Below are positions 73-48,325 of a stretch of DNA of 48,943 nt, piece by piece. Positions within the stretch are counted from its first letter, which is position 1. Every line of letters begins with the position of its first letter. A model generated the notes under the pieces. That model was given only the letters and a program-made list of their open reading frames with translations, had not been told where the DNA came from and searched no databases. Source of the stretch: Thermoanaerobaculia bacterium (lineage in GTDB: Bacteria > Acidobacteriota > Thermoanaerobaculia > Gp7-AA8); contig JAXDIO010000291.1 in assembly GCA_034663965.1 (NCBI GenBank), forward strand, positions 1-48,943. Reading direction: 5' to 3'. Both the position numbers and the translations under genes were made by a program.

Positions 73-2076
73 ATGACTACTCGACGCGCAACCGCGCTGT
101 TCGGCGGCCTCTCGCTGCTCGCAGTCATTGCGCGATTGTTCCAACTGCAGGGGCTCCATCCGCTGGTCTGGGATGAGATCGAATTCTTCCGCGCCACCGA
201 CTGGGTGCGCCGCGGGCTCGTTCCGTATCGCGATTTCTGGGAGCACCACACGCCGTTGCAGTGGTTCCTCTTCGCGCCGGTCACCGCGTTGACGAACAGC
301 ACCGGCGTGAGCGCGATCCTGCTGATGCGCTGGGCGCAGCTGCCACTCTGGATCCTTACGTTCATCCTTCTGCGCGGCTGGATGCGCCGCGCGGGCATCT
401 CGGCGTTCGCGGCATGGACGGCGATCACGCTCGTGCTCTGCAGCACGCTCTTCATGCTGCCCGCGGTCGAGTACCGCGTGGACGTCCTCGGATGCGCGAT
501 CTATATCGCGGCGCTCTTTTTTCTCCAGCGCATCGGAGATTCGGGGGTCGGGGGTCGGGGGTCGGAGCGCTCATTGGCATCGGCAATTGCTCCGACACCC
601 GACACCCGACACCCGACTCCCAGCGGTCCAAAGTTCGCTTTCCTCGGCGGCGCGATCCTTTGCATGGCCGGCCTCGCCAATCTGCGACTCGGTCCGCTGG
701 CCGTGCTCACGCTCCTGCTCGTTCGCGTCGTGCGCACGCGCGACCGCGCCTGGGGCGGCAACGCCCGCGCGAACTGGTGTTTCGCCGGCGCCGCGGCGGC
801 GTTCGGCGCTGCATGCGTTTACTTTGCGGCAACGCATTCCGCGCGCATGGCCTGGCAGCGGCTGTGGAGCGACAACTTCCTCGCCGACCGATTCGCGCAA
901 GCGCCGGTCGACTGGATGTTCGCGCACCGTTTCGCCGTCGCGTTCGGAGTCCGCCTCGTAGACTCCGCGCCGAATTTTCAACTCTCGGCCGTCGATCCGG
1001 GCGGCATCGCCATTCTCGTGATCGGCGGCATCGGCGTCGTGCGCGCGTTGCGCCGCGGCTTCCGCGCGCCCAGCGATGACTTCTTCCTCGCGTTTCTGCA
1101 GGTCGCGAATCTCCTCTTCATCGCGGCGATGAAGTACGTCTTCAACTACCACCTCGAGATCGCCGTGCTGCTGACGGCGCCGCTCGTCGCGATCGAGATC
1201 GATCGCTTTGCGACTTCCGACTCACGCCGCCGCGCGCTGATCGCGCTCGTAGTTATCGCCGCAACGGTCAACATCGCCGCCGCCGTTTTCCGCGGCAAGG
1301 AGAGCGACACCGTCTACGAAGACTTCGTCATGCGCGAAGCCGACCGCCGCACGCCGCCCGGCGCGAAGGTCTTCGACAGCGTCGGCTGGCCGCTGCATCG
1401 CGATCCCGCCTACCGCTACTGGTTCCTGCGCGCGAACGTCTTCGTGATGGAGGAGCACAAACTCTTCGAGCCGTACACGATCGCGGACGTTCTGCGCGAT
1501 CCGCCCGCGGCCGTCATCGCTGACTACGACGTCCGCAAGTGGCTGGCCGCGCATCGTCCATTCGGCGAATTCATCGTCACGCACTACCTCCCGCTCTGGC
1601 GCGAGATCTGGCTGCCGGGGATGTCCGCCCGCGTCACGCCGCTCGCACCGGCAGCAAGATGGATGGTGCTTGCGGACGGCACGTACGACGTCTACGCGTC
1701 GACGAATCTCGCCTCCCATCCGTGGTACCGCCAGCCTCTCGATTTCGAACGTCCGCTCTGGCGCGGCGTCGGTCCGCCAACGCCAGCCGACCGCGGCGCG
1801 CACATCGACTGGTTCATCGACGGCGCTCCGATTTCCGCGACGACTACGCTCACGCTCCGACGCGGACAACGGCTCGACGCGATCTCGCACGAGTCGCTGC
1901 CGGTTGGCATCATGCTCATCGACGCACCCAACGACGCCGCCTTCTGTCAGCCGCCGCGCGGCACCACGCTCGAAGCCTCCGATCCGCCGCGCTGGCACAT
2001 CCCCGACCTCGGCGCGCTGCTCCAACTCGCCCGCGGCACGGACGCGGTCGTGCCGCGTACTCCGTGTCGGCGCTGA
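73..2076 (+). CDS. Integral membrane glycosyltransferase, GT-C fold (GT39/ArnT/PMT_2-like), with a large C-terminal soluble domain
   Basis: 667-aa ORF with ATG start and many hydrophobic helices. The first-loop motif HPLVWDEIEFF...PYRDFWEHHTP is typical of polyprenyl-phosphate-sugar dependent GT-C enzymes. Overlapping ORFs in other frames are Arg/Pro-rich high-GC artefacts. Confidence 0.7.
   Translation: MTTRRATALFGGLSLLAVIARLFQLQGLHPLVWDEIEFFRATDWVRRGLVPYRDFWEHHTPLQWFLFAPVTALTNSTGVSAILLMRWAQLPLWILTFILLRGWMRRAGISAFAAWTAITLVLCSTLFMLPAVEYRVDVLGCAIYIAALFFLQRIGDSGVGGRGSERSLASAIAPTPDTRHPTPSGPKFAFLGGAILCMAGLANLRLGPLAVLTLLLVRVVRTRDRAWGGNARANWCFAGAAAAFGAACVYFAATHSARMAWQRLWSDNFLADRFAQAPVDWMFAHRFAVAFGVRLVDSAPNFQLSAVDPGGIAILVIGGIGVVRALRRGFRAPSDDFFLAFLQVANLLFIAAMKYVFNYHLEIAVLLTAPLVAIEIDRFATSDSRRRALIALVVIAATVNIAAAVFRGKESDTVYEDFVMREADRRTPPGAKVFDSVGWPLHRDPAYRYWFLRANVFVMEEHKLFEPYTIADVLRDPPAAVIADYDVRKWLAAHRPFGEFIVTHYLPLWREIWLPGMSARVTPLAPAARWMVLADGTYDVYASTNLASHPWYRQPLDFERPLWRGVGPPTPADRGAHIDWFIDGAPISATTTLTLRRGQRLDAISHESLPVGIMLIDAPNDAAFCQPPRGTTLEASDPPRWHIPDLGALLQLARGTDAVVPRTPCRR
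541..620. repeat. Heptad-armed palindrome: (TCGGGGG)x3-TCGGAGC / 20-nt spacer / GCTCCGA-(CACCCGA)x3. Lies inside the CDS 73..2076.
   Basis: Arms read directly from the sequence. There is one G-opposite-A mismatch per heptad, always at heptad position 6. Translated in frame as SGVGGRGSERSLASAIAPTPDTRHPTPSG. Confidence 0.85.
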
Positions 2077-2098
2077 GGCGATCTCTTGCTCAGGCACT

Positions 2099-2223
2099 GC
2101 ATCTTGCCAAAGCACAGACAAGAGTGTCTGTGCCACACCGGCTCGTGCATGCACAAGCAATCCTGCAAGTACGGCAGGGTTCATGTGGCATAGACACTCT
2201 TGTCTGTGCTGGTGAGGCTCGCG
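2099..2223. repeat. Composite element made of two inverted GCACAGACA-N4-TGTCTGTGC mini-hairpins (2112-2133 and 2188-2209) with characteristic tails (gcatcttgccaa / ctggtgaggctcgcg)
   Basis: The same hairpin core and tails recur at 5840-5961 and 9713-9836. Confidence 0.85.
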
Positions 2224-2274
2224 ACGCTTGAGAAGATCAACGCCGCCGCGCCGCGAATACAATACGCGGCCCTT

Positions 2275-3582
2275 ATGACTCATCGCTCCATCGGCATTCT
2301 CGGCGGCGGCATCTCCGGAGTCGCACTCGCCTCCTTCCTCGGCGACGACGTTGAGGTTGTCGAGCGGCGCCACAGCATCGGCGGCCTGTGCGGAACCATC
2401 GTCGAAGACGGCTTCACCTTCGACGCCGCCGGACCGCACATCATGTTCAGCAAAAACAAAGAGGTGCTGAACCTGATGGTCGAGACGCTCGGCGACAACG
2501 TCCATCAGCGCCGCCGCGAGAACAAGATCTGGTTCAAGGGCCGTTTCGTGAAGTACCCGTTCGAGAACGATCTGGCCGCGCTGCCGCCCGAGGACAACTT
2601 CGACTGCATCTACGAATACATCGTCAATCCGCGCGCGGACGACACGCCGGCGAACCTCGCGGAGTGGTCGTACAAAACGTTCGGCGCCGGAATCTCGGAG
2701 AAGTACTTCATCCCGTACAACGAGAAGATCTGGAACTATCCGGCCACGAAGCTCGGCCTCGAATTCGTCGAGCGCATTCCGAAGCCGCCGATGGAGGATG
2801 TGCTCAAGTCATCGATCGGCATTTCGACCGAGGGGTATCTGCACCAGTTGCACTTCTACTATCCGGTCGAGGGCGGATACGAATCGCTCGTGCACGCCTT
2901 CGCGAAGAACGTTCGCGGCGACATTCGCACGAACTGGCGCGTCGCCTCCGTCGCGCGCGACGGCAACCGCTGGCGCGTGGCCTCGGCTGACGGTGAGGAG
3001 CGCACGTACGACACGCTCGTCTCCACACTGCCGATTCACGAATTGCTGAAAGTCTGGACGGACGCGCCCGACGACGTGCACAAGCTCGCCGCCACGCTCC
3101 GCTACAACTCGCTGATCAATGTCCTCATCGGATGCAACGAAGATCGTGGCTATCCCTACACCGCGCTCTACGTCCCCGATCCGAGTCTCCTCTTTCACCG
3201 TCTCTCGTTCCCGAAAGCGTTCAGCGAGCATTGCGTGCCGGCGGGATCGTCATCGGTCATGGCGGAGATCACCACGAACGAAGGCGGCGACGGCGTGTGG
3301 GAGATGTCGGACGAGGCAATCATCGACCGCACCATCCGTGAACTGGAGATGACCGGCCTCGTCGATCCGAGCACCATCGTCTACCGCAAAGCGATCCGCT
3401 TCCTCTACGGCTATCCGGTTTACGACCTCGACTATCGCGCCAACGTTACCGCGATGCGCACCGCCGTCGCCGCCACCGGCCTGCACCTGCTCGGGCGATT
3501 TGCGCAGTTCGACTACATCAATAGCGATGTGTGCATCGAACGCGCTCTTGCGCTTTCGAAGCTGTTAGCTGTTAGCTCTTAG
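2275..3582 (+). CDS. FAD-dependent oxidoreductase (amine-oxidase / UDP-galactopyranose-mutase-like fold)
   Basis: N-terminal dinucleotide-binding motif IGILGGGISGVALA...VVERRHSIGG, followed by GPHIMFSKNKEV. I prefer the ATG at 2275 because the TTG at 2200 lies inside the upstream repeat. The last residues (LLAVSS) and the TAG stop are encoded by the repeat at 3561-3657. Confidence 0.7.
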   Translation: MTHRSIGILGGGISGVALASFLGDDVEVVERRHSIGGLCGTIVEDGFTFDAAGPHIMFSKNKEVLNLMVETLGDNVHQRRRENKIWFKGRFVKYPFENDLAALPPEDNFDCIYEYIVNPRADDTPANLAEWSYKTFGAGISEKYFIPYNEKIWNYPATKLGLEFVERIPKPPMEDVLKSSIGISTEGYLHQLHFYYPVEGGYESLVHAFAKNVRGDIRTNWRVASVARDGNRWRVASADGEERTYDTLVSTLPIHELLKVWTDAPDDVHKLAATLRYNSLINVLIGCNEDRGYPYTALYVPDPSLLFHRLSFPKAFSEHCVPAGSSSVMAEITTNEGGDGVWEMSDEAIIDRTIRELEMTGLVDPSTIVYRKAIRFLYGYPVYDLDYRANVTAMRTAVAATGLHLLGRFAQFDYINSDVCIERALALSKLLAVSS

Positions 3583-3657
3583 CTATCAGGGGAACGGAAC
3601 AGCCGTGCGATCTGACCTCGTTCCCCTGAGAGCTAACAGCTAAGAGCCAAGAGCTAA
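3561..3657. repeat. Heptad-armed palindrome, unit GTTAGCT (tgttagc tgttagc tcttagc tatcagg ggaacg / spacer / complement)
   Basis: Arms read directly. The element fills the whole gap between the stop at 3580-3582 and the ATG at 3658. Confidence 0.85.
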
Positions 3658-4395: not shown

Positions 4396-5060
4396 AACTC
4401 ACCATCTCCATGATCACGCTCAACGAGGAGCGCGCGGTCGCGAAGGTCGTCGGCGACATTCGCGGCGTCGTGCCGGATGCGGAGATCTTCCTCGTCGATT
4501 CGAGCAAGGACCGCACCGCGGAAATCGCCACGGATCTCGGCTGCCGCGTCTTCAAGCAATTCCCGCCGAAGGGCTACGGACCAGCGATGGATCGCGCCGT
4601 CCGCGACGCCGCGGGCGACATCGTCATCACGCTCGACTGCGACGACACGTATCCTGTCGAAACGATCCCGACGATGGTTGCGCTGATCGACGAAGGCTAC
4701 GACCTCGTCAACGCCACGCGTCTGGCGAAGCGGCCGAAGGCGATGCCATTCGCGAACTACCTCGCCAACCGCATCTTCGCCTGGACCGCGCGGCTGTTTC
4801 ACGGCATCCGCACCACCGACGTGCACAGCGGCATGCGCGCGTATCGCAAGTCGATGCTGGAAAAGGTGACGTGGGATCCGAACGGCCCGGCCTTGCCGGT
4901 GGACATGCTCGTGATTCCGTACCGCATGGGTTACCGCGTCGCCGAGATCCCGATCGAATACCGCGACCGCATCGGCGCGTCGACGCTGCAGCGGTGGAAC
5001 TCGACGGTGTGGACATTCAAACGCTTGTGGCGCGCGCGAAACGTAAAGCGACGGGGATAA
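4392..5060 (+). CDS. GT2 family glycosyltransferase (polyprenyl/dolichyl-phosphate sugar synthase-like)
   Basis: MKLTISMITLNEE... with DSSKDRT and TLDCDDTYP (DxD-type) motifs. The ATG at 4392 overlaps the upstream stop (ATGA), so I prefer it to the 4341 start. Confidence 0.85.
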   Translation: MKLTISMITLNEERAVAKVVGDIRGVVPDAEIFLVDSSKDRTAEIATDLGCRVFKQFPPKGYGPAMDRAVRDAAGDIVITLDCDDTYPVETIPTMVALIDEGYDLVNATRLAKRPKAMPFANYLANRIFAWTARLFHGIRTTDVHSGMRAYRKSMLEKVTWDPNGPALPVDMLVIPYRMGYRVAEIPIEYRDRIGASTLQRWNSTVWTFKRLWRARNVKRRG

Positions 5061-5068
5061 AAGCAAAT

Positions 5069-5170
5069 GTTGAATGTTGAATGTTCAATGTTGAATGTTG
5101 AATGGAAGCGGAGTCGGTCGTGACCCCTCCATTCAACATTGAACATTTAACATTCAACATTCAACATTCG
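5069..5170. repeat. Heptad-armed palindrome, unit GTTGAAT (5 units + gg / 23-nt spacer / complement)
   Basis: Read directly. The left arm ends in the ATG at 5102. The right arm is translated as PFNIEHLTFNIQHS. Confidence 0.9.
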
Positions 5171-5839
5171 TCTCCTCCGAAAATAGCGATCCTCGCCGGC
5201 GGCTTCGGCACCCGCCTCGGTGATCTAACCCGCGGCCTTCCCAAGCCGATGATCCCGATCAACGGACGCCCGTACCTCGAACGAGTCATCGACTCCTTCG
5301 CCCGCCGCGGATTGCGCGACATCGTCCTGCTGACGGGATATCGCGCCGAGGTCATCGAAGAGCATTTTGGGGATGGCGAGAAGTTCGGCGTGACCATCAC
5401 CTACAGCCGCGAAACGCAGCCCCTCGGCACCGGCGGCGCGATCCGCGAGGCGCGCGCGCTTCTCGGCGAAAACTTTGTGATGACCTACGGCGATGTGCTG
5501 CGCTATTTCGACTACGACCGCTTCGTGACCGCGCATGACGAACCGTGCGTGGCCGTCTACCCGCGCCGGACGATCGGCAACGTGGACGTCGATGGCGATC
5601 GCGTCATCCGCTTTGATAAACATGTGCCTGAACTGCCATACATCGACGCCGGCTTTTCGCTGATGCCGTCCAGCATCATCGACCTGCTGCCGCCGTCCGG
5701 ACCGTGTTCGTTCGAAGAGTCGATCTTCCCACTGCTCGCTGCTGAGCGCCGGCTCGCGTGCGAAATCGTCGATCACAATTTCTTCGACATCGGGACGCCG
5801 GAGGAGCTCGCGCGAACGACTAGTGGATTAGTCGATTAG
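5102..5839 (+). CDS. Sugar-1-phosphate nucleotidyltransferase (NTP_transferase family)
   Basis: KIAILAGGFGTRLG...LPKPMIPINGRPYLE...TGGAIREA motifs. The only in-frame starts upstream of the G-loop are ATG 5102 and GTG 5120, both inside the repeat. Confidence 0.8.
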   Translation: MEAESVVTPPFNIEHLTFNIQHSSPPKIAILAGGFGTRLGDLTRGLPKPMIPINGRPYLERVIDSFARRGLRDIVLLTGYRAEVIEEHFGDGEKFGVTITYSRETQPLGTGGAIREARALLGENFVMTYGDVLRYFDYDRFVTAHDEPCVAVYPRRTIGNVDVDGDRVIRFDKHVPELPYIDAGFSLMPSSIIDLLPPSGPCSFEESIFPLLAAERRLACEIVDHNFFDIGTPEELARTTSGLVD

Positions 5840-5961
5840 GTGTGGCACAGACACTCTTGTCTGTGCTGGTGAGGCTCGCGAAAATGGTGAAAGAAAATCC
5901 GCTTCAGAAGGTTCCGCCAGCATATCTTGCCAAAGCACAGACAAGAGTGTCTGTGCCACAC
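5840..5961. repeat. Composite of two GCACAGACA-N4-TGTCTGTGC mini-hairpins (5845-5866, 5935-5956), with the tails facing inward
   Basis: Same core as 2099-2223, but the two halves are in swapped order. Confidence 0.85.
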
Positions 5962-6002
5962 TAATCCTCTCGCTAACTTCATCCACTAATCTACTAACCC
6001 AC

Positions 6003-6965
6003 ATGCGAATCGTCGTTACCGGCGCGGCCGGATTCATTGCCACCAATCTTCTCGAACGTCTTCTCGCCGAAGGGCATGAGGTTCACGGCATCGACAACTT
6101 TTTTCTCGGCAAGCGCGAGTACGTCGCGCGGTCGCTGGAGAAGCCGGGCTTCACGTTTCACGAATTCGATCTGCTCGATCGCGATCGCGTCGTCGCGCTG
6201 TTTCAGCGGCTGCGGCCGGAACTGGTGTGGCATCTCGCCGCGAACAGCGACATCAGCTACGGCACCAGCTACACCGATTTCGATCTCAAGGGCGGCACGC
6301 TGGTCACGTACAACCTGCTCGAGGCGATGCGCGTTTCGAATACGAAGCAGCTCATCTTCTCCAGCAGCGGCGCGATCTACGGCGAGCCGACCATTCTGCC
6401 GACGCCGGAAAATTACGGACCGCTGTTTCCGATCTCGTTTTACGCGGCCAGCAAGATCGCCTGCGAGACTCTGATCACTGCGTTCGCGGCGGGATACCAG
6501 ATGAAGTGCTGGATCTTCCGATTCGGCAACATCGTCGGTGGTTATCCGACCCACGGCGTCATCCACGATTTCGTCCTCAAGCTCCAGCGCGATCCGACCC
6601 GCCTCGAAATCCTCGGCGACGGCACGCAGTCGAAGCCGTACGTGCACGTCGAGGATTGTCTCGACGGGATGATGTTCGGCCACGCCACCGCGAAGGACCT
6701 CGTTAACTGCTACAACCTCGCCGTCCCCGACTGGACCTCGGTCAACCAAATCGCGGAGTGGACGATCGAGGCGATGGGCCTCGATCCCGCGAAGGTCGCG
6801 ATCACGCGAACCGGCGGTTCGCGCGGCTGGCCCGGCGACGTACCCAAAGTCCGCCTCGACACCGCGCGCATGACCGCGCTCGGCTGGACTCCGAAGATGG
6901 GCAGCAACGAAGCGGTGCGCCGCTCGATTCGCGAGACCGTCGCGCAGTTTGTCGGAGCGACGTAG
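6003..6965 (+). CDS. NAD-dependent epimerase/dehydratase (extended SDR, UDP-glucose 4-epimerase-like)
   Basis: MRIVVTGAAGFIATNL Rossmann motif; catalytic YAASK. Confidence 0.9.
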   Translation: MRIVVTGAAGFIATNLLERLLAEGHEVHGIDNFFLGKREYVARSLEKPGFTFHEFDLLDRDRVVALFQRLRPELVWHLAANSDISYGTSYTDFDLKGGTLVTYNLLEAMRVSNTKQLIFSSSGAIYGEPTILPTPENYGPLFPISFYAASKIACETLITAFAAGYQMKCWIFRFGNIVGGYPTHGVIHDFVLKLQRDPTRLEILGDGTQSKPYVHVEDCLDGMMFGHATAKDLVNCYNLAVPDWTSVNQIAEWTIEAMGLDPAKVAITRTGGSRGWPGDVPKVRLDTARMTALGWTPKMGSNEAVRRSIRETVAQFVGAT

Positions 6966-7064
6966 CGCCGTCGGCCCGACGGCTGGACCGCCGCCGGCTC
7001 GGCGGCAAGAGTCAAAGCGCCAGCGAGCCGCTGGCGGTACAGCCGACGAGCCGTCGGCGCTACG
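6961..7064. repeat. GC-rich compound palindrome: a chain of four short hairpins closed by the outer inverted repeat cgtagcgcc...ggcgctacg
   Basis: Read directly. It occupies the convergent gap and contains the TAG stop of the epimerase gene. Confidence 0.75.
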
Positions 7065-7072
7065 AACGACCG

Positions 7073-9010
7073 CTACTGCGCCGCCTGCGCGATGAACGCG
7101 TCGAGGTTTCGCGGGTTCACCGGCATGTGCAGGGCGTTGGTCAGGAAATCGTTCGCGTCCGTCGGCGAGATTGCTTTTGCGGCGCGGAGCTCGGCGACGC
7201 CCTCCGAGCGCTTGTTTGCCTGGAGCAGGCCGAGCCCGAGGTAGATGTGCGGTTCGACGGATTGCGGAAAGATTTCGACGGCAAGGCGGTACTGGCTCAC
7301 CGCCTCCTCGTAGTGGCCGTCCTGCGAGAGCTTGGTGCCGTCGTCGAGATACTTGTCGTATTCGTCCTGCCGCGGATTGCGCGGCACCATCTGCGTGGCG
7401 ACGGCGATGTTGTTCTTCGCGTGCGGCGTCGTCGGATCGAGTGACAGCGCGTAGCGGTTGTTGTTAATCGCGCCGCGGAGCAGCGCCGTTCGCACTGCCG
7501 AGTCAGGCATCGCGCGCGCTTTCACCACCAGCGCGGTCCCCAGGGCCACGTACGCCTGCGGAAACCAATCCGGCGCTTTCGCGCCCTGGACTTCCATTGC
7601 CGGGACCGTCAGGTCGATGGCGCGCTGCAGGTGAGGCATGGCCTCGTCTGGTTTCGTGGCCTGCAGGGTTTGCCCGAGGAGATATTCGGCGACGGAATTA
7701 TCCCGGGTGACATCGAGCGCGTGCGCGAAGAGAGTCTCCGAATCCTTCCAGTAGCGGAGCTGATGGCTGGCCACGATCGCGCAGCCGGTGACCACAACTG
7801 CGGCGATTGCGGCCAGCGCCTGCGATGGAATCCGAAAACGTGCGGCGAGATCGAGCGCGCCGAAGGTCAGCGCGATGAAGAGGCCGATGTAGGCAAAGTA
7901 CGTGTAGCGGTCCGCCATCGATTGCGTTCCGATCGCGACGATGCCTATGACCGGAATGAGCGTGCCGAGGAACCAGAGCCAGCCGGTGAGGAGGTAGGGC
8001 GCGGTGCGGCGGGCGGCGTAGACGGCGATCGTGATGGCCGCGATGAAAAGCAGCGGGAGGATCGCGGCGGCGAGCGAAACGCGGACGAGCGGATAGGGGA
8101 GAGCCATATCGATCGGGACGAAGAGTTTCCCGACGTAGGTGGCGTATGCGAGCAGCGCGTTCGCGATGCGATCGCCGATCGAGAGAGAGGCTTGAATCGC
8201 ATTCAGACTGCGTTGGCCGATCACAGCGGCGGCGGCTCCCACGATCGTGAGCAGGAACAGCGGCCACTTTTCGATTGCCCGCTGCCGGAGATCGTCCAAC
8301 GTGCGCAGACGACTCAGCGGCCAGACGTCGATCAGGAGAAAGACGAACGGCAGCGTGATGTACATCTGCTTCGCCATCAGCGAAAGCGCCATCGCGATCG
8401 AGACGCCGGCCATCCGCCGCGGCGCGCGGGCGTAAAGCCAGAGCGCGAGCATGGCGAAGACGGTCGAGAGCGTGTCTTTCCGTTCCGAGACCCAGGCCAC
8501 CGACTCCACGTGCATCGGATGAATCGCGAAGAGCGCTGCGATGAATGCGGACGGCCACGGCGCTCGCGTTAGTTGGCGCAGGGCGAGAAAGAGAAGCAAG
8601 GTGCTGAGCGCGTGCAGAAAGACGCTAGTGAGCAGATGCATCCCGGCGCGCTGGCCCCAGATCGTCACGTCGAGCATGTGCGAGAGCCACGTCAGCGGAT
8701 ACCAGCCGATGTCGGCGGACGTCAGCGCCCACGACACGTCGCGATTGAGGACGTGCTGATTTTCGTAGACGAACTGGCCGTCATCGAGATTCAGAAACGC
8801 ATGCGTGGTGACCTGGCCGAAGACGATGAACGTGAGCGCGATGAGAATCGCGACGATCGTCCAATCGCGCGCACGCCAGTCGACCGGCGCGGGAGTCGCT
8901 TCCAAAACGGCTGCGACAACCGGCTCGGGAGTGGTGCGGATCTGTTTCTGGCGTGCTTTTCGGCCCATATGAAAAACGCCGGCGGTGGCCGGCGCGTCGA
9001 TCGTCATCAT
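7073..9010 (-). CDS. Membrane O-glycosyl/mannosyltransferase-like protein (PMT_2/DUF1736-like N-terminal half) with C-terminal TPR repeats
   Basis: Multi-pass N-terminal half with AIHPMHVESVAWVSERKD. The C-terminal ~200 aa have TPR-like AxxYLGxxL periodicity. The start is uncertain (9010, 9007 or 8968), because 9010 is also the last base of the tRNA-Val. Confidence 0.7.
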   Translation of the reverse strand: MMTIDAPATAGVFHMGRKARQKQIRTTPEPVVAAVLEATPAPVDWRARDWTIVAILIALTFIVFGQVTTHAFLNLDDGQFVYENQHVLNRDVSWALTSADIGWYPLTWLSHMLDVTIWGQRAGMHLLTSVFLHALSTLLLFLALRQLTRAPWPSAFIAALFAIHPMHVESVAWVSERKDTLSTVFAMLALWLYARAPRRMAGVSIAMALSLMAKQMYITLPFVFLLIDVWPLSRLRTLDDLRQRAIEKWPLFLLTIVGAAAAVIGQRSLNAIQASLSIGDRIANALLAYATYVGKLFVPIDMALPYPLVRVSLAAAILPLLFIAAITIAVYAARRTAPYLLTGWLWFLGTLIPVIGIVAIGTQSMADRYTYFAYIGLFIALTFGALDLAARFRIPSQALAAIAAVVVTGCAIVASHQLRYWKDSETLFAHALDVTRDNSVAEYLLGQTLQATKPDEAMPHLQRAIDLTVPAMEVQGAKAPDWFPQAYVALGTALVVKARAMPDSAVRTALLRGAINNNRYALSLDPTTPHAKNNIAVATQMVPRNPRQDEYDKYLDDGTKLSQDGHYEEAVSQYRLAVEIFPQSVEPHIYLGLGLLQANKRSEGVAELRAAKAISPTDANDFLTNALHMPVNPRNLDAFIAQAAQ

Positions 9011-9085
9011 GGTAGGCCCTAGCGGACTCGAACCGCTGACCTCTACCGTGTCAAGGTAGCGCTCTAACCAACTGAGCTAAGGGCC
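9010..9085 (-). tRNA. tRNA-Val (anticodon GAC), CCA encoded
   Basis: Reverse complement is GGCCCTTAGCTCAGTTGGTTAGAGCGCTACCTTGACACGGTAGAGGTCAGCGGTTCGAGTCCGCTAGGGCCTACCA. It folds as a cloverleaf by hand, with anticodon loop TTGACAC. Confidence 0.9.
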
Positions 9086-9222
9086 TGAACACTAGACCGG
9101 CACGAACAGAAGCGGGTTTCGATGCTATTCCCCTGCGGCCGGCCCGGGTCCGCGGAGGATATTCGAAGCACGGGATTCGCGGCAAGCAACGAAACGGCAC
9201 GCTCCACGCAGGTGTCCGCGCC

Positions 9223-11690: not shown

Positions 11691-11704
11691 TTGTAAGGAT
11701 CGCG

Positions 11705-11786
11705 AAAGGCTTCTCACCACAAAGACACAAAGAGCACAAAGAGAGCTTTCTTTGTGTCCTTTGTGTCTTTGTGGTGAAAAGCCTTT
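11705..11786. repeat. CACAAAG-armed palindrome (ccacaaag acacaaag agcacaaag / loop / complement)
   Basis: Read directly. A second copy lies at 23979-24058. Confidence 0.85.
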
Positions 11787-11805
11787 CAGAGCATGATTCG
11801 CGGCG

Positions 11806-27712: not shown

Positions 27713-27834
27713 GAGACGTCGTTACGATTATTGGCACTTCCGCAATGCCGCAGCGCCGGGGTTTAGTGTAGGATCTCAATGCGTATTGCCTCCGCCGAAT
27801 CGTGGTGTTCGATCGTTCACAGTTTGGGGTGCTT

Positions 27835-33477: not shown

Positions 33478-33870
33478 ATGAGCGCCAGCACTCCTTCCTT
33501 TGGACGGCAGAAGATTCTGCTCATCGACGATGATGAACTCATCGCCGATTCCCTGCGCCGGTACCTCTCGGTGCAAGGCTGCGACGTCGATGTCGCCCTC
33601 GAGGAAGGAGCGGCGAAGACGCTCATGGGGCAGCAACATTATGGAGTGGTCGTCGTCGATCCGTTTCTGACCGGCGGCGTTCATCTCGACGACTCCGCAT
33701 TGCTCGATTCCATTTCGCTTTTGCAGCCCGATGCGTCAGTGATCGTCGTGACCGGATACGGTTCGAACGATCTGACGCAAATGGCCAGCGCAGCAAAGAT
33801 CTCGTTGCTTTCCAAACCGCAGTCCGTCGTTGCACTCAGCGAATTCATATTCAAAGGATTGTCGACATGA
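33478..33870 (+). CDS. Stand-alone receiver (CheY-like REC) domain protein
   Basis: KILLIDDDELIADSL...VVVVDPFL...VIVVTGYG...LSKP. The ORF is open from GTG 33382, but ATG 33478 gives the usual spacing before the DD pair. The stop overlaps the next ATG (ATGA). Confidence 0.7.
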   Translation: MSASTPSFGRQKILLIDDDELIADSLRRYLSVQGCDVDVALEEGAAKTLMGQQHYGVVVVDPFLTGGVHLDDSALLDSISLLQPDASVIVVTGYGSNDLTQMASAAKISLLSKPQSVVALSEFIFKGLST

Positions 33871-42406: not shown

Positions 42407-42413
42407 GAGGTTC

Positions 42414-42685: not shown

Positions 42686-42991
42686 TTATTCAGCGGCCCA
42701 CGCCAGAAAGATGTCGAGGATCTCTGCAAGCGTGGTCACGTCACCCGCGCCGTTGAACGTGTTTTCCTCCACGTAGCAGCGCAGCCACGGCGGTTGTGGG
42801 TCGCTCGACAGATCACCGCGTTTGACTTCATCGAAGGGCTTACTTTCGAGTGTCGTTCCCCGGAGGCTGATCTTCAACCACCACCCAGGATTGTCAGTCG
42901 ACCGGACAGAGATGCCGTGATCGTGCTCCCATTCCCCGTCGCACTGCTTGGCGAACCATGCCTGCAACTGCTGCAAGGTATCCGAGCGCAT
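42686..42991 (-). CDS. Imm53-family polymorphic-toxin immunity protein
   Basis: LQAWFAKQCDGEWEHDHGISVRSTDNPGWWLKISLRGT...LAEILDIFLAW matches my recollection of the Imm53 hallmark (CDGxWEH...DNPGW). Confidence 0.7.
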   Translation of the reverse strand: MRSDTLQQLQAWFAKQCDGEWEHDHGISVRSTDNPGWWLKISLRGTTLESKPFDEVKRGDLSSDPQPPWLRCYVEENTFNGAGDVTTLAEILDIFLAWAAE

Positions 42992-45900
42992 ACGTGATCA
43001 CAAGCATCCACCGAGCACCCACGTGTACCTGCAGTATCCAGGCCATTCTTGGACGACACGGCGGACAGCGCCGATTCAGAGCGTCGTACGTCCTCGCCGT
43101 CGTCGCGTTGTTCGCGTCCGTCACGGTGCTGAGGTTGCCTGCGGCATCGTATGCGTAAGTGGTGACGCCCGTGACGGCACTTGTCTGCCTGATCATGCGG
43201 CCGAAGTCATCGTAGACGTACGACGTCAGGTTGCCGTTGGGGTCCGTTACGGACGTGAGATTGCCGAGGACATCGTAGGCGTAAGCGGTCGCGATCTGGC
43301 CTCCTGGCGCTGAGGACAGTGTTTGCATTACCGAGGCGAGGCGATTCGCAGGATCGTACGCGTAAGACGTATTTGGCGCCGTGTGCCGTTCGTCCTGAAC
43401 GCTGACGAGATTGTTGGCGCCGTCGTAGTGGTAGACGATCTTGCTGCCGTCAGGATGATCGATCTCGCGCAAACGCGCGAACGAGTCATACAGGAATGCG
43501 TCCGAGCGCGTCATTGTCCATGCGCCGGGATGTCCGCCGAGGTAGCGTTCGGCAGATTTGTGACCGGTGGCCGGGTCGTAGTCGTATTCGATCCGTTCAT
43601 AGGCGGTCGCGGATACCTGGCGCGTCGTTGCCGTCGTTCGGCCGCGGTCGTCGTACTCGAAGGTTGTAGCTCCGCCTCCAGGCGTGGTTGTCGAGGCGAT
43701 CGGACCGAGCGCGGGCTGATAGGTGCGGGAGTTGACGATGTCGGTTCCACACAGGGGATCGGCGCCCGTATCGCATCCAGACACGCCCTTCAGCGTCGAG
43801 GTGATCAGGCGCCCGATCGTGTCGTATGAGGATTCCGTCGCTATGCCATTTGGATCAACTGTGCGGCCTGCGTTGCCGAAGACGTCGTAATTTTCAAAGC
43901 GGGTGATGTGTCCCGCGGCGTTTCGTAACGCGGCGAGATGTCCGCGCCATGTTGCAGGGACGGCAGTGTCAATCGGGTAGTACACCGATGTCGTTGTGTC
44001 AGTGACGTCGGTGCGGGGACCATCGCTGACCTTCCGAAGGCCGCTGGGTTGGGAAAGGGTCAACCACGCCGCGTTGAATGCACCTCCCGGATTGAACGCC
44101 GCGGCTTCGGTGCCGTTGTACAGGCTCGTGTTCGACGTGTACTGGACTTGTTGCGCAGGGTTGCCGGTCTCTCCTGTCGTGACCTGCTGGGTGATCGCGC
44201 CCGTAGCTGGATCGAGTTGAATCGCCACGGTGCGGACCTGATTGAGATCGAGCACGCTGGCCGTCGAAGTGACGGTTGCAATATCGGGCCAGTTGGCGTC
44301 GCCGTAGGTGTAGCTCGTCGTCAATGTCGAAGATGTTGGCGTGAGATCGACCGTGAGTAACGACGTGGGCGTCTGCCTGCAGTGGCCTGCGTCGTTGGCC
44401 GGATCACAACCGGTAGGGCGGTAAGGACCGCTGAGGGTGGTGACGCGGTCGTTCGCATCAAACTCGCGCACGCTGATGTAGCCTCGGGAATCCTGCTCCC
44501 GAAGGAGATGTCCATTCAGCAGATCGTAGGCGTATACGGCGTCGTTTGTTCCGCAGGTTGCACAGTGGCCGATGATCTGCACCGTCCGCGGACGTCCGGC
44601 GATGATTCGAGTGTAGTACTCGGTAACCGCGCCAGTACCTGACGTTGTTCGGGTGAGCGTTTCGGAGGGGTCGCGTCCATCTGTGTAGTCGATCGAGGTA
44701 ATGTCGTCCTGATCTGATATCGATGACGTCGCGCGTGGTGCCAGGCCCGCGTAATCATGAGACTCCATCAGAGATCCGCGGGCGTCGTACGCTGCCGTGA
44801 GACCATTGTTGTACTCGTACCTTCGCCACGCCGCTCCCGAAGGTCCTGTCACATTCACGAGATTACCGCTGCCATCGTAAGTGTAGGTCCAGGCCAGCGA
44901 GGTACCGTCGATGGCGATGGAGTTGATCCGGTTTGCAGTATCGGGCGTGATCGTCCAGCCCCAATTGCCCCAGGAGTCGGTCACATGTGATGGAACGCCG
45001 CTGGCATCGTAAGAAATGACTACGTCGCGGCCACCGGCGGCCCGAGAATGTACGCGCAACACGCGTCCGGATCCCGCGTCAAAAATCGTCTCTGTTGCAC
45101 TGCGAGGTTCGCGCAGCGTGAATGTGCCCGCGCCCGGAATGAGGATGGCCGGCGTACTCCCCCGGGGCCACATCTGAAGCCAGCCGCCATCGACGTTCTG
45201 AAAAAGGTACTGGGAACTCGCGGCGGTTCTCACTTCGAGAAAGGTCGTGCCGAGGGTCTGCGATTGGTACGTCCGCATCTTTGCGTCGAAGAGACTCTTC
45301 CAGCCGTTTCCGAAGAATCCCCCGCCGCCCTGGCGATCGTAGGTTCGCATGAGCGGGGCGAAGTCGCTTCCCGGCAACGCATCGCGGTCGGTCATGCGCA
45401 TGTTGCCGTTGGCTAATCGGATCGGTTTTCCTGCGCAAAACGAACAGGACGAACCTGACGATGCATCTCCCGACCCTGGACATTCATTGTCGCCGCTGTT
45501 GAGGACCGTGGAAACCTTTCTATCCCCGCATGCCACGACAGTCAGCATTACCATCGTTGAGTCGGAACCGTCGGGCCAAGCGCTGAATCCCACCGTTTGG
45601 TGCCCTGTGAGGTTGTGGTCGCCGGGAAAATAGCCTGGGGATGTCGAGCTTCCGAGACGTTCGACAACTAAGCCGTTATCGGTCCATGCCGAGTCAGCGT
45701 CATATTTTACTTCGCCAAAAATCTCATATGGCGCTGGGTTAATGGCGTTTACGGCTGTGATCGAAGGAGTGTGGTCAAAGTCAAAGGTCTTTGTCTCGAT
45801 GTACGGCGGGTCATCCGGAACACCGCATTCTCCATTTTCTTCGTTTACTTTGGAGCAGGTAACGCTCATAGACCAGGAGTGGGTTCCCTGGAGGCATGAG

Positions 45901-46211
45901 TAACACAACCCACCACTGATCCCTGATTGCGAGCACGGCGAATGGGGACAAGTTATTTGAGGGACAAACGCGTTGTCGTCAAATCTTAGTGACACTTGAA
46001 CTGCGCTGTTGGGACACGCTGACGAACTCCCTGTGATAGACAGTGTGAGGCAGGACGGGTTTGCCGTCTTTGTCAACGTGAGTGACCCCGTGCACGTGGC
46101 TTGGGCAGGCGACGCGAGTAGCAGCAGAGCAGCTACGCCTACAGTGCAAATGACATATCGCACGAACGCTTGAAACGGTGCAGCAATCGTCGTAGGAATT
46201 ACTGTGCGCAC
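42894..46211 (-). CDS. RHS/YD-repeat protein, 3'-truncated. Signal peptide, Cys-rich N-terminal domain and about 800 aa of RHS repeats are present, but there is no core-closing DPxGL and no toxin tip. Homology ends near 43050.
   Basis: Collinear with the + strand RHS up to ...DANNATTARTYDALNR. A 1-nt frameshift near 43070 is followed by 7 more homologous codons (ALSAVSS). The rest of the ORF tail is read-through across the Imm53 gene in another frame. Confidence 0.75.
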   Translation of the reverse strand: MRTVIPTTIAAPFQAFVRYVICTVGVAALLLLASPAQATCTGSLTLTKTANPSCLTLSITGSSSACPNSAVQVSLRFDDNAFVPQITCPHSPCSQSGISGGLCYSCLQGTHSWSMSVTCSKVNEENGECGVPDDPPYIETKTFDFDHTPSITAVNAINPAPYEIFGEVKYDADSAWTDNGLVVERLGSSTSPGYFPGDHNLTGHQTVGFSAWPDGSDSTMVMLTVVACGDRKVSTVLNSGDNECPGSGDASSGSSCSFCAGKPIRLANGNMRMTDRDALPGSDFAPLMRTYDRQGGGGFFGNGWKSLFDAKMRTYQSQTLGTTFLEVRTAASSQYLFQNVDGGWLQMWPRGSTPAILIPGAGTFTLREPRSATETIFDAGSGRVLRVHSRAAGGRDVVISYDASGVPSHVTDSWGNWGWTITPDTANRINSIAIDGTSLAWTYTYDGSGNLVNVTGPSGAAWRRYEYNNGLTAAYDARGSLMESHDYAGLAPRATSSISDQDDITSIDYTDGRDPSETLTRTTSGTGAVTEYYTRIIAGRPRTVQIIGHCATCGTNDAVYAYDLLNGHLLREQDSRGYISVREFDANDRVTTLSGPYRPTGCDPANDAGHCRQTPTSLLTVDLTPTSSTLTTSYTYGDANWPDIATVTSTASVLDLNQVRTVAIQLDPATGAITQQVTTGETGNPAQQVQYTSNTSLYNGTEAAAFNPGGAFNAAWLTLSQPSGLRKVSDGPRTDVTDTTTSVYYPIDTAVPATWRGHLAALRNAAGHITRFENYDVFGNAGRTVDPNGIATESSYDTIGRLITSTLKGVSGCDTGADPLCGTDIVNSRTYQPALGPIASTTTPGGGATTFEYDDRGRTTATTRQVSATAYERIEYDYDPATGHKSAERYLGGHPGAWTMTRSDAFLYDSFARLREIDHPDGSKIVYHYDGANNLVSVQDERHTAPNTSYAYDPANRLASVMQTLSSAPGGQIATAYAYDVLGNLTSVTDPNGNLTSYVYDDFGRMIRQTSAVTGVTTYAYDAAGNLSTVTDANNATTARTYDALNRRCPPCRPRMAWILQVHVGARWMLVITYALGYLAAVAGMVRQAVRRGMGARSRHLCPVD

Positions 46212-46463: not shown

Positions 46464-46526
46464 GTTGAATGTTGAATGAACGCCACGGATCACCCCCGCG
46501 CCGTTGAACATTGAAACTCAACATTG
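46464..46526. repeat. Short GTTGAAT heptad palindrome just downstream of the exbD stop
   Basis: gttgaatgttgaatg / spacer / gttgaacattgaaactcaacattg. Confidence 0.7.
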
Positions 46527-46528
46527 CC

Positions 46529-46954: not shown

Positions 46955-46970
46955 GTGCTTTTACCTCGCT

Positions 46971-47058
46971 GGGCGTGGGGAGTAGGGGGTGGGGGGTGGG
47001 AGAACTGCCGAACTGAATTTTCCGATCTCCCACACCCCACTCCCTACACCCCACTCCC
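46971..47058. repeat. G-rich heptad-armed palindrome (TGGGGAG TAGGGGG TGGGGGG TGGGAGA / spacer / complement) between the two exbD genes
   Basis: Read directly. Arm mismatches fall at heptad position 6. Confidence 0.85.
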
Positions 47059-47064
47059 TTCGTT

Positions 47065-47511
47065 TCACTTTCCTTGTTGCGCGATCTGTTTTCCGGCCAT
47101 CTGGTTTTCGGTCAGGAACGATACGGCTGTGAAGTCGGCATCGTTCGCGGCTTTCATCACCATACGTACCTTGCCGAAGTTGATGCGCTTGTCGGCTTTC
47201 ACCATCACGTTGCGGCCCGCGTTCTTGTCGTGCTCGGCCTTCATGTAGCGTGGCAGGTCGCGGTCGGGAATCCAGTCCTGGCCGATGAAGACCGTGCCGT
47301 CCACCTTGATCGACACGATCAGGTCGGACTCCTTGCCCGGCTTCTTCTCCGAGTGCGCGCCTTGCGGCAGCGCGACGTCGACACCTGACTGCAGCATCGG
47401 CGTGACCACCATGAAGATGATCAGGAGCACGAGACAGACGTCGACCAGCGGCGTGACGTTGATGTCTCCTTTGACTTCGTCGGGGCTTCCGCCCCCAGCG
47501 CCGAATGCCAT
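47065..47511 (-). CDS. exbD: Biopolymer transporter ExbD/TolR (first copy)
   Basis: DINVTPLVDVCLVLLIIFMV signature. Confidence 0.9.
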   Translation of the reverse strand: MAFGAGGGSPDEVKGDINVTPLVDVCLVLLIIFMVVTPMLQSGVDVALPQGAHSEKKPGKESDLIVSIKVDGTVFIGQDWIPDRDLPRYMKAEHDKNAGRNVMVKADKRINFGKVRMVMKAANDADFTAVSFLTENQMAGKQIAQQGK

Positions 47512-47520
47512 CCTCGACTC

Positions 47521-48240
47521 CTAGCGAACCGTTGCTGAGCTGGCGCGAACGCGCGCCTCGTTCTTGATGAAGTAGTCGATGAGCTGGGATGACGAGTTCG
47601 ACATCTCCACCTGAAAGCGTTCGACCTTGTTGAGGAAGTAGTTGTAGAGCCAGACCGCCGGGATGGCCACGAAGAGTCCGAACGCGGTCGTGACGAGCGC
47701 TTCGGCGATACCGGCCGAAACGGCGCCGAGTCCGCCCGACCCGCTGATGGCCATGCCCTGGAAGGCGTGGATGATGCCGGCCACGGTGCCGAACAGGCCG
47801 ACGAACGGAGCGGTCGTGGAGATCGTGGCCAGATTGCCGAGGCCTTTTTTCATCTCCGCGGTGGTCATGAGCGACTCACGTTCGATGGCGCGTTGGCCTG
47901 AGGCCACGATGTCAAAGTCGTCGGGCAGCGTCTGCGTCGACTCGTATTGAAACTCGGTCAGCCCGGCACGCAGCACGCGCGCTAGGTGCGAGTGGCGGTA
48001 GCGCTTATCGCTGGCGAGTGTGATCGCTTCCTCGAGCTTGTGCTGCTTGAGCAGCGGCGTGACGCCGAGAGCGATGCCGAGCGATTCGCGCTTCGCGCGT
48101 TGAAAACGAATCAGCCGTTCGATGGCGATGGTCAGCGACCAGATCGACATCAGCGCCAGCACGACCACGACGCCTTTCGCGACCCAGTTCATGGTCGCCC
48201 ACATTCCGAGGAGGCTGAAATTACTGTTCATCCCGTCCAT
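47521..48240 (-). CDS. exbB: MotA/TolQ/ExbB proton-channel protein
   Basis: Three TM helices; TTAPFVGLFGTVAGIIHAF...AGIAEALVTTAFGLFVAIPA. Confidence 0.9.
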   Translation of the reverse strand: MDGMNSNFSLLGMWATMNWVAKGVVVVLALMSIWSLTIAIERLIRFQRAKRESLGIALGVTPLLKQHKLEEAITLASDKRYRHSHLARVLRAGLTEFQYESTQTLPDDFDIVASGQRAIERESLMTTAEMKKGLGNLATISTTAPFVGLFGTVAGIIHAFQGMAISGSGGLGAVSAGIAEALVTTAFGLFVAIPAVWLYNYFLNKVERFQVEMSNSSSQLIDYFIKNEARVRASSATVR

Positions 48241-48256
48241 TACTTCTCTCCTTTTC

Positions 48257-48325
48257 GAGTGATAAGTGGTCAGTGGTCAGTGGTCAGGGACTTCCGCTGA
48301 CCACTGGCCACTAACCACTTATCTC
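48257..48325. repeat. Heptad-armed palindrome, unit GGTCAGT (gataagt ggtcagt ggtcagt ggtcagg / loop / complement) between tonB and exbB
   Basis: Read directly. It overlaps the tonB stop codon (48324-48326). Confidence 0.85.

Follow-up and report, generated by a model that had tools for sequence, protein, structure and literature searches.

The stretch of DNA analysed here (hereafter the window) is the 48,943-nucleotide contig JAXDIO010000291.1 of a representative of Thermoanaerobaculia (phylum Acidobacteriota); its GC content is 62%, and the homologues of the proteins it encodes are named Thermoanaerobaculia bacterium. Distributed along it, with a density of about one per 5 kb, are periodic palindromes, i.e. 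elements in which a tandem array of a short unit is followed by a spacer and then by the same array in inverted orientation. An earlier note on this DNA had drawn attention to a number of such loci, and every one of them proved to be present as described when read directly and with Tandem Repeats Finder (TRF). We combined these readings with a hairpin-first scan (arms of at least 20 bp, loops of at most 60 nt), in which the paired arms in the window were 26-41 nt long and 85-95% complementary. Five further features described below, namely the periodic palindromes at 5820-5997, 11704-11787 and 23991-24046 and two non-periodic doublets resembling repetitive extragenic palindromic (REP) sequences at 2111-2210 and 6961-7064, were not in the earlier note.

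The first periodic palindrome is intragenic. Unit TCGGGGG, present 3.6 times and belonging to a family that we denote GGGnGTs, builds an element at 541-620 (arms 541-568 and 589-616, 25 of 28 positions paired, loop of 20 nt) that lies in frame within the open reading frame (ORF) 73-2076(+) and has a predicted minimum free energy of -53.5 kcal/mol (z -6.3). The following three occupy gene junctions. The junction between an amine oxidase and a methyltransferase gene holds a palindrome of the AGCTnTT family (unit GTTAGCT) at 3560-3655 (arms 3560-3596 and 3619-3655, 32 of 37 paired, loop of 22 nt; -50.5 kcal/mol), the left arm of which includes the amine oxidase stop codon (3580-3582), while the methyltransferase ATG (3658) is found 2 nt past the right arm. 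Between a GT2 gene (stop 5058-5060) and an NTP-transferase gene there is a palindrome of the GTTnAAT family at 5066-5168, with 5.6 copies of GTTGAAT (arms 5066-5106 and 5128-5168, 39 of 41 paired, loop of 21 nt; -59.7 kcal/mol, z -13). The next junction, between the NTP-transferase and an epimerase gene (ATG 6003), is filled by an 8-mer palindrome of the AGTnGATy family at 5820-5997, whose left arm (5820-5840) contains the NTP-transferase stop (5837-5839) and whose centre, up to the right arm at 5961-5997, is broken by an inverted REP-like doublet nested in it (5841-5867 and 5934-5960); TRF also reports a period-8 array at 5817-5839.

Two palindromes of the CACAAAG family, with units of 8-9 nt, are located at 11704-11787, between divergent GH15 (-) and radical-SAM (+) genes, and at 23991-24046, between convergent PALP (stop 23977-23979) and iron-permease (stop 24047-24049) genes. 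The former has a non-periodic outer stem in addition to its periodic part and folds with -58.8 kcal/mol (z -11.4), the latter with -29.9 kcal/mol. A solo array of about five GTTGAAT units at 19506-19543, for which the partner arm is absent, lies 27 nt downstream of the stop codon of an SDR gene (19571-20569, -). Three more elements are associated with the tonB-exb operon near the end of the window: an AGTGGyy-family palindrome (unit GGTCAGT) at 48261-48323 (arms 48261-48287 and 48297-48323, 25 of 27 paired, loop of 9 nt; -48.4 kcal/mol, z -10.9), which begins immediately past the tonB stop (48324-48326), its far end being separated from the exbB start (48240) by 20 nt; a GGGnGTG palindrome at 46971-47058 (arms 46971-47003 and 47026-47058, 29 of 33 paired, loop of 22 nt; -61.2 kcal/mol) between exbD1 (stop 47065-47067) and exbD2 (start 46954), upstream of the Shine-Dalgarno (SD) sequence of exbD2; and a degenerate GTTGAAT palindrome of the GTTnAAT family with indels at 46464-46526, 2 nt past the exbD2 stop (-21 kcal/mol).

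When these positions are set against the Pfam annotation of the window ORFs, seven of the ten periodic elements fall into tight junctions of co-directional genes (amine oxidase/methyltransferase, GT2/NTP-transferase, NTP-transferase/epimerase, tonB/exbB, exbD1/exbD2, exbD2/RHS, and SDR and the next gene), the remaining three being distributed among one convergent junction, one divergent junction and one gene interior. The elements start 0-11 nt past a stop codon or include it, and they end just ahead of the next SD or start codon. Their place is the short interval that separates a stop codon from the ribosome-binding site of the following gene or, when the arms are stop-free, an in-frame position within a gene.

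Architecture, degenerate base and polarity

The construction rule put forward in the earlier note (short units in tandem, followed by a spacer that is not conserved and by the array in inverted orientation) is real and far above what shuffling would predict. The window contains 10 hairpins with arms of at least 20 bp, most of them having arms of period 7, whereas 100 dinucleotide shuffles yielded 0.33 on average and never more than 2; five of the window hairpins pass a strict periodicity test, which no hairpin did in any of the 100 shuffles. Repeats in metagenomes can in principle be mis-assembled, but the failure of all shuffles to yield a periodic long hairpin, the recovery of identical elements in independent assemblies and the presence of the same architecture in isolate or complete genomes (Oscillochloris, Segatella copri, Thermoanaerobaculia chromosomes) leave virtually no room for chance or an assembly artefact as the cause.

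A wider sample, 590 kb of related Thermoanaerobaculia DNA from a metagenome scan with ExbB, contains 101 distinct long hairpins, comprising 45 with period 7, 17 with period 8, three with period 9, one with period 5 and 35 that are non-periodic; loop lengths in this sample range from 4 to 48 nt (median 20). Of the period-7 arrays reported by TRF, 43 out of 87 occur in inverted pairs, and none of the period-6 or period-9 arrays in the pairing test was paired. A period conserved at 7, as initially stated, is therefore too narrow a description, since units of 8 and 9 nt obey the same rule. The fixed phase of the arm mismatches, on the other hand, is confirmed for the elements at 541, 3560 and 46971, the stems of which are 6-bp helices parted by 1x1 mismatches at each seventh base; in the GTTAGCT element the mismatches do recur at a fixed position, but the variable base is position 1 (G) and not position 2 as originally given. 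One degenerate position per unit is found in, e.g., GTTnAAT, GGGnGTs, AGCTnTT and AGTnGATy, and this position is paired in 64% of cases (46% would be expected for independent arms), as opposed to 93% elsewhere in the unit. In the element at 541-620, one arm consists entirely of TCGGGGG and the other entirely of TCGGGTG. The right-arm patterns of the orthologous locus L125 are explained equally well by a same-order unit-wise complement, in place of a mirror copy, and by slippage of one unit.

In 62 of the 66 periodic elements it is the 5' arm that is rich in purines, whichever strand is read. Counted by unit family the bias is 32 out of 36 (binomial p = 2e-6), compared with 19 out of 35 for the non-periodic palindromes. 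As a consequence of this polarity, the 3' arm is stop-free in all frames about twice as often as the 5' arm (31/66 versus 14/66). The polarity rule and the one-degenerate-base rule both appear to be new, as far as our literature search went. Elements of the opposite polarity, with (ATTCAAC)n followed by (GTTGAAT)n, were encountered at the loci L010, L013, L028, L030, L059, L063, L072, L115 and L117, which belong to Verrucomicrobiota and one metagenome-assembled genome of Acidobacteriota (L072, Ca. Sulfopaludibacter); their inner units often decay toward GC-rich variants.

Regularities of this kind bring to mind de novo synthesis at breaks, whereby a reiterative polymerase (telomerase-like, a primase-polymerase or a reverse transcriptase) would add the same unit repeatedly to both 3' ends, which would then be linked across filler DNA, producing array, unique spacer and inverted array in one step. 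Such a process would explain why, on either side, the purine- or G-rich strand is directed 5' to 3' to the centre (62/66), and also the unique loops, the missing consistent target duplication, arm-specific variants (the TCGGGGG versus the TCGGGTG arm at 541-620) and the one variable position per unit. We nevertheless deem it very improbable: bacteria are not known to possess an enzyme of this sort and we encountered none, the copies in Bacteroidota and viruses keep a conserved loop (see below), CACAAAG copies share non-repeat outer stems, the verrucomicrobial GTTGAAT elements have the opposite polarity, and young elements already possess heterogeneous units.

Gain and loss of elements at orthologous sites

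About 85 orthologous loci (denoted by L and a number) were compared, 80 of them from the metagenome scan with ExbB and exhibiting 100-84% amino acid identity in this protein; loci with ExbB at least 92% identical are referred to as the close clade and the more distant ones as the distant clade. As to the comparison of presence and absence suggested in the earlier note, strains with identical ExbB indeed differ in whether a given site carries an element. The window and L001-L003 share identical 63-nt and 88-nt elements at tonB/exbB and exbD1/exbD2, respectively. The loci L122-L124 encode an ExbB 100% identical to that of the window, yet display empty intra-operon junctions: the tonB/exbB junction is empty in L122 and L123, where it reads 'gcactaaggagaagtaATG', and the exbD1/exbD2 junction in L123, L124 and L126, where it reads 'aagtgaactgaggtaaacgcaATG'. 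The tonB/exbB junction is occupied in 13 of 31 close-clade loci as compared with 0 of 45 distant ones, and exbD1/exbD2 in 12 of 27 as compared with 0 of 40; the gap after the exb operon is filled, by many unit types, in 16 of 22 distant-clade loci. The same two junctions in the close clade hold AGTGGyy 7-mers, AGTnGATy 8-mers, GGGnGTG or GGGGGTC elements, remnants, or nothing, and the different families at one junction apparently represent independent gains. Filled and empty sites aligned in this way demonstrate gain and loss of whole elements at the DNA level.

Orthologous copies also differ from each other internally. Unit numbers in the left and right arms are 3/4 in L148, 5/5 in L149 and 4/4 in L154. 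Downstream of exbD2, the element at 46464-46526 shares its upstream flank with the copies in L001 (10427-10591) and L003 (1201-1303), whereas it has fewer units (counts of about two and about five, as compared with about 11 in the left arm of the L001/L003 copy), another loop and entirely different sequence downstream; past it, the window and L002 run into an RHS gene, and L001 and L003 into a gene for a 618-aa protein. This element marks a synteny or recombination breakpoint. An unbiased indel survey revealed, between L151 and L152, a symmetric 57-nt central deletion leaving GTGGATC joined to TGATCCAC, which suggests hairpin formation in DNA, and, between L125 and L128, one clean 94-nt insertion flanked by the 6-bp direct repeat AAGGAG; the boundaries of the other insertion or deletion events overlap by 0-7 nt. 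In L139 (at approx. 7175-7330), two tandem GGGGGTC palindromes with similar loops stand at exbD1/exbD2, a local duplication of a whole element reminiscent of bacterial interspersed mosaic elements (BIMEs). The notion that the loop is captured target DNA was rejected, because loops resemble empty sites no more than shuffled loops do (the longest common substring averages 5.27, as compared with 4.93 for shuffled loops) and the flanks at filled sites are intact.

The copy at 541-620 lies inside a gene. The product of ORF 73-2076 is a conserved membrane protein of 667 aa in the window and in the homologue P0001, all other homologues having 637-639 aa and lacking exactly the 28 residues (GVGGRGSERSLASAIAPTPDTRHPTPSG) encoded by a block of 84 nt, or 28 codons, at 544-627. 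This site is empty in L203 and L204 and filled in L202. An in-frame block of this size points to insertion in a single step, since gradual growth by 7 nt would shift the frame. A query with the element-encoded peptide retrieved a second intragenic GGGnGTs copy, in a family of membrane proteins of 59-72 aa (P0121, P0124, P0126, P0129, P0130 and P0131, one of which is named Thermoanaerobaculia). The N-terminal part of these proteins (SGVGGRGSE, a variable stretch, and PTPDTRHPTP) is encoded by a short GGGnGTs palindrome, and the stretch encoded by the loop is different in every orthologue.

At the GT2/NTP-transferase junction, the element has also supplied coding sequence. The earlier note had remarked that a heptad array is either open or closed in all three frames, (GTTGAAT)n having TGA and ATG in each of them and (ATTCAAC)n none of the stops, and direct reading shows this arithmetic to be correct. 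It also matters in practice: the stop-free TCGGGGG element lies in frame in a gene, and translation of an (ATTCAAC)n arm yields the N-terminus of the NTP-transferase (ORF 5102/5120-5839). A start of this ORF is possible only inside the element, either at the ATG at 5102 (in the last unit of the left arm) or at the GTG at 5120 (in the loop, 6 nt past GGAG), and some 20-27 N-terminal residues are encoded by the element. A GTTGAAT element is present at this junction in the window, L202 and L203, and the SD and GTG of the loop (GGAG-N6-GTG, 5110-5122 in the window) are kept in all three, which suggests that the NTP-transferase starts in the loop and takes its first residues from the (ATTCAAC)n arm. 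Neighbouring junctions have fared differently in the same loci. At amine oxidase/methyltransferase, an orthologous copy of the 3560 element occurs in L203 and a different insert in L202; at NTP-transferase/epimerase, L202 has the 8-mer element of the window in uninterrupted form (15956-16055) and L203 an empty site with overlapping stop and start codons; and at the convergent epimerase/TPR junction, the window, L202 and L203 each carry a different element. Across these syntenic loci the arms are better conserved than the loops or the flanks. Altogether, in-frame insertion, nesting, symmetric central deletion and differences in unit number are documented among orthologous copies.

Could the elements owe their existence to a function in RNA? 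Their predicted RNA folding energies in the window span -21 to -61 kcal/mol (z -3.3 to -13.2). Intrinsic terminators were rejected as an explanation: no T tract follows the elements, which are thus not canonical terminators, those at 541, 3560 and 5066 were not flagged, only the T-rich inner stem of CACAAAG matches, and terminator-like sites number 15 as compared with 10.2 +/- 3.8 expected. No Rfam family was matched either, the only hits being sub-threshold ones to generic hairpins resembling microRNA precursors, on both strands. A G-quadruplex as the common denominator was likewise dismissed, as it fits the GGGnGTs family only. A broader alternative holds that intercistronic or 3'-end RNA hairpins grow in place, lengthening by slippage of 7-9 nt while template switching restores symmetry and stability is selected. 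Most stems have a very high predicted stability (-48 to -61 kcal/mol, z -6 to -13), the elements lie 0-11 nt from stop codons and ahead of the SD or start, their arms stay near-balanced as unit numbers vary (3/4, 5/5 and 4/4 in the three loci above), and the 5066 loop has a conserved SD and GTG start; moreover, among the long simple repeats of prokaryotes, those with heptanucleotide units are the most frequent (Mrazek 2007, as summarized in PMC4679880). However, no seed hairpin is present at the empty sites (the exb junctions, the 544-627 site and the L203 junction), near-identical strains lack the elements, the in-frame 84-nt copy cannot be reached in steps of 7 nt, and unrelated loci as well as unrelated phyla contain the same units. 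Furthermore, of 211 arm mismatches, 56 are compatible with G-U pairing in the sense transcript, 56 in the antisense transcript and 99 are transversions, so that no RNA-level compensation biased to the transcribed strand was found; this strand symmetry argues against selection on the structure of a particular transcript, and the degenerate position is largely uncompensated. Considering all this, together with the missing T tract, we find growth in place unlikely.

Unit families, distribution and related repeats

The earlier note had described a different 7-mer at each locus, with only the design being shared. This is not supported, as the units form recurrent families, with members at numerous loci and in numerous genomes: GTTnAAT, GGGnGTs, AGTGGyy/AGTnGATy, AGCTnTT and CACAAAG. 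TCGGGGG and TGGGGxG, formerly listed separately, are one family, GGGnGTs, intermediates between them existing at one orthologous site. The 7-mer AGTGGTC and the 8-mer AGTGGATC are one base apart and share their sites. The CACAAAG copies of five loci, that at 11704-11787 among them, align end to end, non-repeat outer stems included. About 36 different units were counted in the Thermoanaerobaculia lineage.

A scan of 185,579 species genomes for three tandem copies of GTTGAAT returned at least 118 stretches. The sources listed include Thermoanaerobaculia, other Acidobacteriota, Verrucomicrobiota, Chloroflexales, Bacteroidota, Nitrospirota, Cyanobacteria, Firmicutes and others, Bacteroidota being represented among the matches listed by Segatella copri, Flavobacteriia and Chitinophagaceae. 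At many of the listed loci the array has an inverted partner with which it forms a palindrome, and the flanking 8 kb often contain palindromes of other units, such as TAGGTCG, GTCGGGG, AGAGATC and GGGGAGT in Thermoanaerobaculia, ATTGCAG in Chloroflexales, ATTTACG in Verrucomicrobia, and AAGTCAA and AGATAAG in Bacteroidota. GTTGAAT palindromes as such are spread over at least five phyla and also occur on viral contigs about 100 kb long. In the viral database IMG/VR, (GTTGAAT)x3 occurs in 69 stretches, compared with 10-15 for three composition-matched heptamers, and the viral copies (loci L206-L273) fill successive gaps between unrelated co-directional genes. Examples are the copies at 4990, 6254 and 7494 in L223 and at 7619, 8891 and 10159 in L260, on contigs of about 100 kb with a GC of 0.46; two viral contigs have at least eight hits each. 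The elements of Segatella copri and of viruses share a conserved 27-nt loop (gcctaacggactcaagggcgctagcct), and when loops were compared between non-orthologous copies as a test for recent copy-and-paste, the only shared one was that of Segatella copri in L082 and L091. A likeness of GTTCAAT to the T-loop of tRNA was considered and dropped as too weak.

The architecture was unfamiliar to the author of the earlier note, but paired inverted arrays have already been listed in Geobacter metallireducens and Xanthomonas (PMC2700814; PMC4692102). Aklujkar et al. (2009; PMC2700814) define in G. metallireducens a class 1 of four octanucleotide repeats GTTGCTYN and a class 2 of three 8-9-nt repeats TCTCCGTS[Y], both forming pairs on opposite strands at a variable distance, and a class 3 of five heptanucleotide repeats MTYCTGA drawn in the same strand-switching way; these classes are labelled 'global regulator binding sites' and read as sites of the nucleoid proteins IHF or HU, and a separate element with four copies of GGACCGG occurs within and between genes. 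The likeness to our elements (several families per genome, 3-5 tandem 7-9-nt units, opposite-strand pairs, dozens of copies in Geobacter) is evident, whereas the phylum and the units are different and the Geobacter account, in its available part, is an annotation catalogue without an analysis of presence and absence, polarity or hairpins. In Xanthomonas, each genome has 70-75 cases of two GGGAATC arrays that converge as an inverted pair and are capable of forming stem-loops (Rehm et al. 2015; PMC4692102); the arrays are transcribed, and the length of the repeat depends on the species while the single or inverted-pair type is kept. These are, like our elements, intergenic heptamer arrays with the G-rich arm first, i.e. 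of the same polarity, but they constitute a single unit family studied for the formation of G-quadruplexes, which most of our units, such as GTTGAAT, AGTGGTC and CACAAAG, cannot form. The elements described here are of the same kind, having at least three tandem units of 7-9 nt and a second array nearby on the opposite strand at a variable, non-conserved distance, and being multicopy and mostly intergenic, with several unit families per genome and occasional intragenic copies. As in long simple sequence repeats, units of 5-11 nt are arranged head to tail and their copy number differs among strains. Tandem heptamers, mostly intergenic, near start codons and scattered across phyla, have further been described as short tandemly repeated repetitive sequences (STRRs) of cyanobacteria and Beggiatoaceae, namely in Beggiatoaceae (TAACTGA; PMC4679880) and in Nostoc, where TTTTGAA, an AT-rich cousin of GTTGAAT, forms direct arrays near start codons (bioRxiv 10.1101/2022.06.06.494920). 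Unlike our elements, STRRs are mainly direct arrays, the Maribeggiatoa genome having 169 direct sets and one inverted repeat (PMC4679880). In the light of these reports we regard the architecture as known but unexplained, and the elements of the window as further members with new comparative evidence.

Both the IHF/HU proposal for Geobacter (PMC2700814) and the proposal that cold-shock proteins bind heptamers, one per protein (PMC4679880), raise the question whether the arrays serve as protein-binding platforms on DNA or RNA, the unit being a 6-7-nt motif plus a spacer base, the inverted arrays paired platforms and the hairpin incidental. The candidate binders would include nucleoid proteins such as IHF or HU, or cold-shock-type single-strand binders covering about 7 nt each. 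Six conserved positions and one degenerate position per unit, the conservation of units across strains while loops drift, the presence of GTTGAAT in several phyla and the strong polarity rule would all agree with it. Nonetheless, some 36 units in one lineage would call for many binders or a very loose one, the elements are dispensable among near-identical strains and occur inside coding sequence, and no binding protein is known; this explanation is thus, in our opinion, distinctly unlikely.

It is instructive to set the periodic elements beside the better-known classes of mobile palindromes. REPs have a conserved sequence of 20-40 nt with a 5' GTAG-type head and a cognate REP-associated tyrosine transposase (RAYT). 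Our elements resemble REPs, BIMEs and REP doublets (REPINs) in being multicopy short extragenic palindromes at operon junctions and gene ends, in inverted doublets forming long hairpins, and in varying among strains; however, their arms are tandem arrays of about 36 different units without the GTAG head, and identity with REPs or REPINs was therefore rejected for want of a shared GTAG-headed palindrome of 20-40 nt. MITEs, or miniature inverted-repeat transposable elements, have a parent insertion sequence and a target-site duplication of fixed length. With them our elements share the non-autonomous nature, the composition of nearly nothing but inverted repeat, insertion polymorphism and nesting, but only a single clean 6-bp duplication was seen here, and no parent insertion sequence turned up in about 1.5 Mb of loci, in which no systematic search was made. 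Eukaryotic foldback (FB) transposons, although much larger, also have arms of short tandem repeats whose length varies among copies, and like our elements they are nearly all inverted repeat. Finally, the Rickettsia palindromic elements (RPEs) presented by Ogata and colleagues in 2000 are reportedly in-frame palindromic repeats that add a peptide without destroying the protein, and are said to constitute sequence families of 100-150 bp with no tandem-unit arms. The block at 544-627 is like them a palindrome within a conserved ORF, with a length that is a multiple of three (84 nt, 28 aa) and absent from orthologues, while it differs in its tandem-unit arms and the lineage of its host.

Repeats of other kinds coexist with the periodic elements. 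The long non-periodic palindrome at 6961-7064, at the convergent epimerase/TPR junction, has 41-nt arms, each beginning with CGTAGCGCCGTCGGCCCGACGGC, and a 22-nt loop; its arms correspond to a REP-like hairpin with a GTAG head, and it thus looks like a REPIN. A further REP-like family, AGCACAGACAAGAGTGTCTGTGCCACA, forms inverted doublets (spacer length 40-66 nt) at 2111-2210 and 5841-5960 in the window and elsewhere in L041 (3611-3709), L128 (2319-2416), L139 (1220-1329) and L202 (12042-12140). MITE-like palindromes of 120-280 nt, with the ends TGTCATCCTGAGC...GCTCAGGATGACA and variable inner palindromes, differ in presence among close strains (L122-L129 at approx. 2100-2450; L202, 13510-13787; L147, 1832-1949). 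The window further harbours a tRNA-Sec gene (25208-25305, +) between PagL-like and histidine kinase genes, a tRNA-Val(GAC) gene (9010-9086, -), five tandem 252-nt units with 86% matches (36897-38144) that represent coding domain repeats in an 1831-aa PKD/TIG/dockerin surface protein (33867-39362), and large RHS-repeat genes at 27802-32919 (+) and 42894-46211 (-). The latter adjoins the exbBD operon and is strain-variable, being present in L002 and not in L001.

Origin and significance of the periodic palindromes

On balance, we are somewhat inclined to regard the periodic palindromes as small, non-autonomous, foldback-type selfish repeats akin to REPs and MITEs, 60-110 nt long, with arms of 3-6 units and a spacer free to vary. 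They would spread by the copying of pre-formed elements, either by a hairpin-recognizing transposase or by template switching during replication. The palindrome would fold as a hairpin in DNA, which might account for the symmetric central deletion; the arms would lengthen or shorten by slippage of one or two units, and their similarity may be kept up by slippage and exchange between copies or arms. Transcripts would carry very stable intercistronic hairpins (-48 to -61 kcal/mol), the effects of which on mRNA processing, stability and translational coupling are probably by-products, with occasional co-option such as may have occurred at the NTP-transferase start.

Several observations weigh against this interpretation. 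No RAYT or other transposase was detected in the window ORFs by Pfam scans, and the elements have no consistent target-site duplication or target motif. Simple recent copy-and-paste predicts some shared loops, and no loop common to non-orthologous Thermoanaerobaculia copies was found, a weakly contrary result, as with at most about 15 copies per genome the test is a weak one. The foldback model leaves unexplained the polarity (62/66), the one degenerate position per unit and the recurrence of the same heptamer in distant phyla, and positions hugging stops and starts would also fit a selected role.

Some of these points would be met by a bolder proposition, improbable in our view, namely that the palindromes are made, and not merely copied, by an activity indifferent to sequence and specific for period and polarity. 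It might consist in reiterative 3'-end extension of both sides of a break followed by joining, or in a transposase that reads periodic stems. If it existed, such an activity would account for the purine strand running toward the centre, the degenerate base, the unique spacers and the lack of a consistent target duplication, and the same process, or horizontal transfer borne by phages, would explain the GTTGAAT-armed palindromes in at least five phyla.

As regards the biology of the host lineage, the palindromes fill a large share of its short gene junctions, placing predicted hairpins of -50 to -60 kcal/mol directly between the stop of one gene and the start of the following one. Proteins gain peptides from them, genes obtain start regions, and recombination breakpoints are marked by them. 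Their density and position, together with these effects, make them a real force in operon structure, annotation and strain variation in the abundant soil Acidobacteriota; the consequences for annotation include false N-termini and read-through ORFs. More generally, a neglected class of repeats, noted in Geobacter and Xanthomonas and never explained, can now be approached by three handles: the behaviour of an insertion element, the polarity rule and the one-degenerate-base rule. These may also bear on the question why heptanucleotide repeats are over-represented in bacteria.

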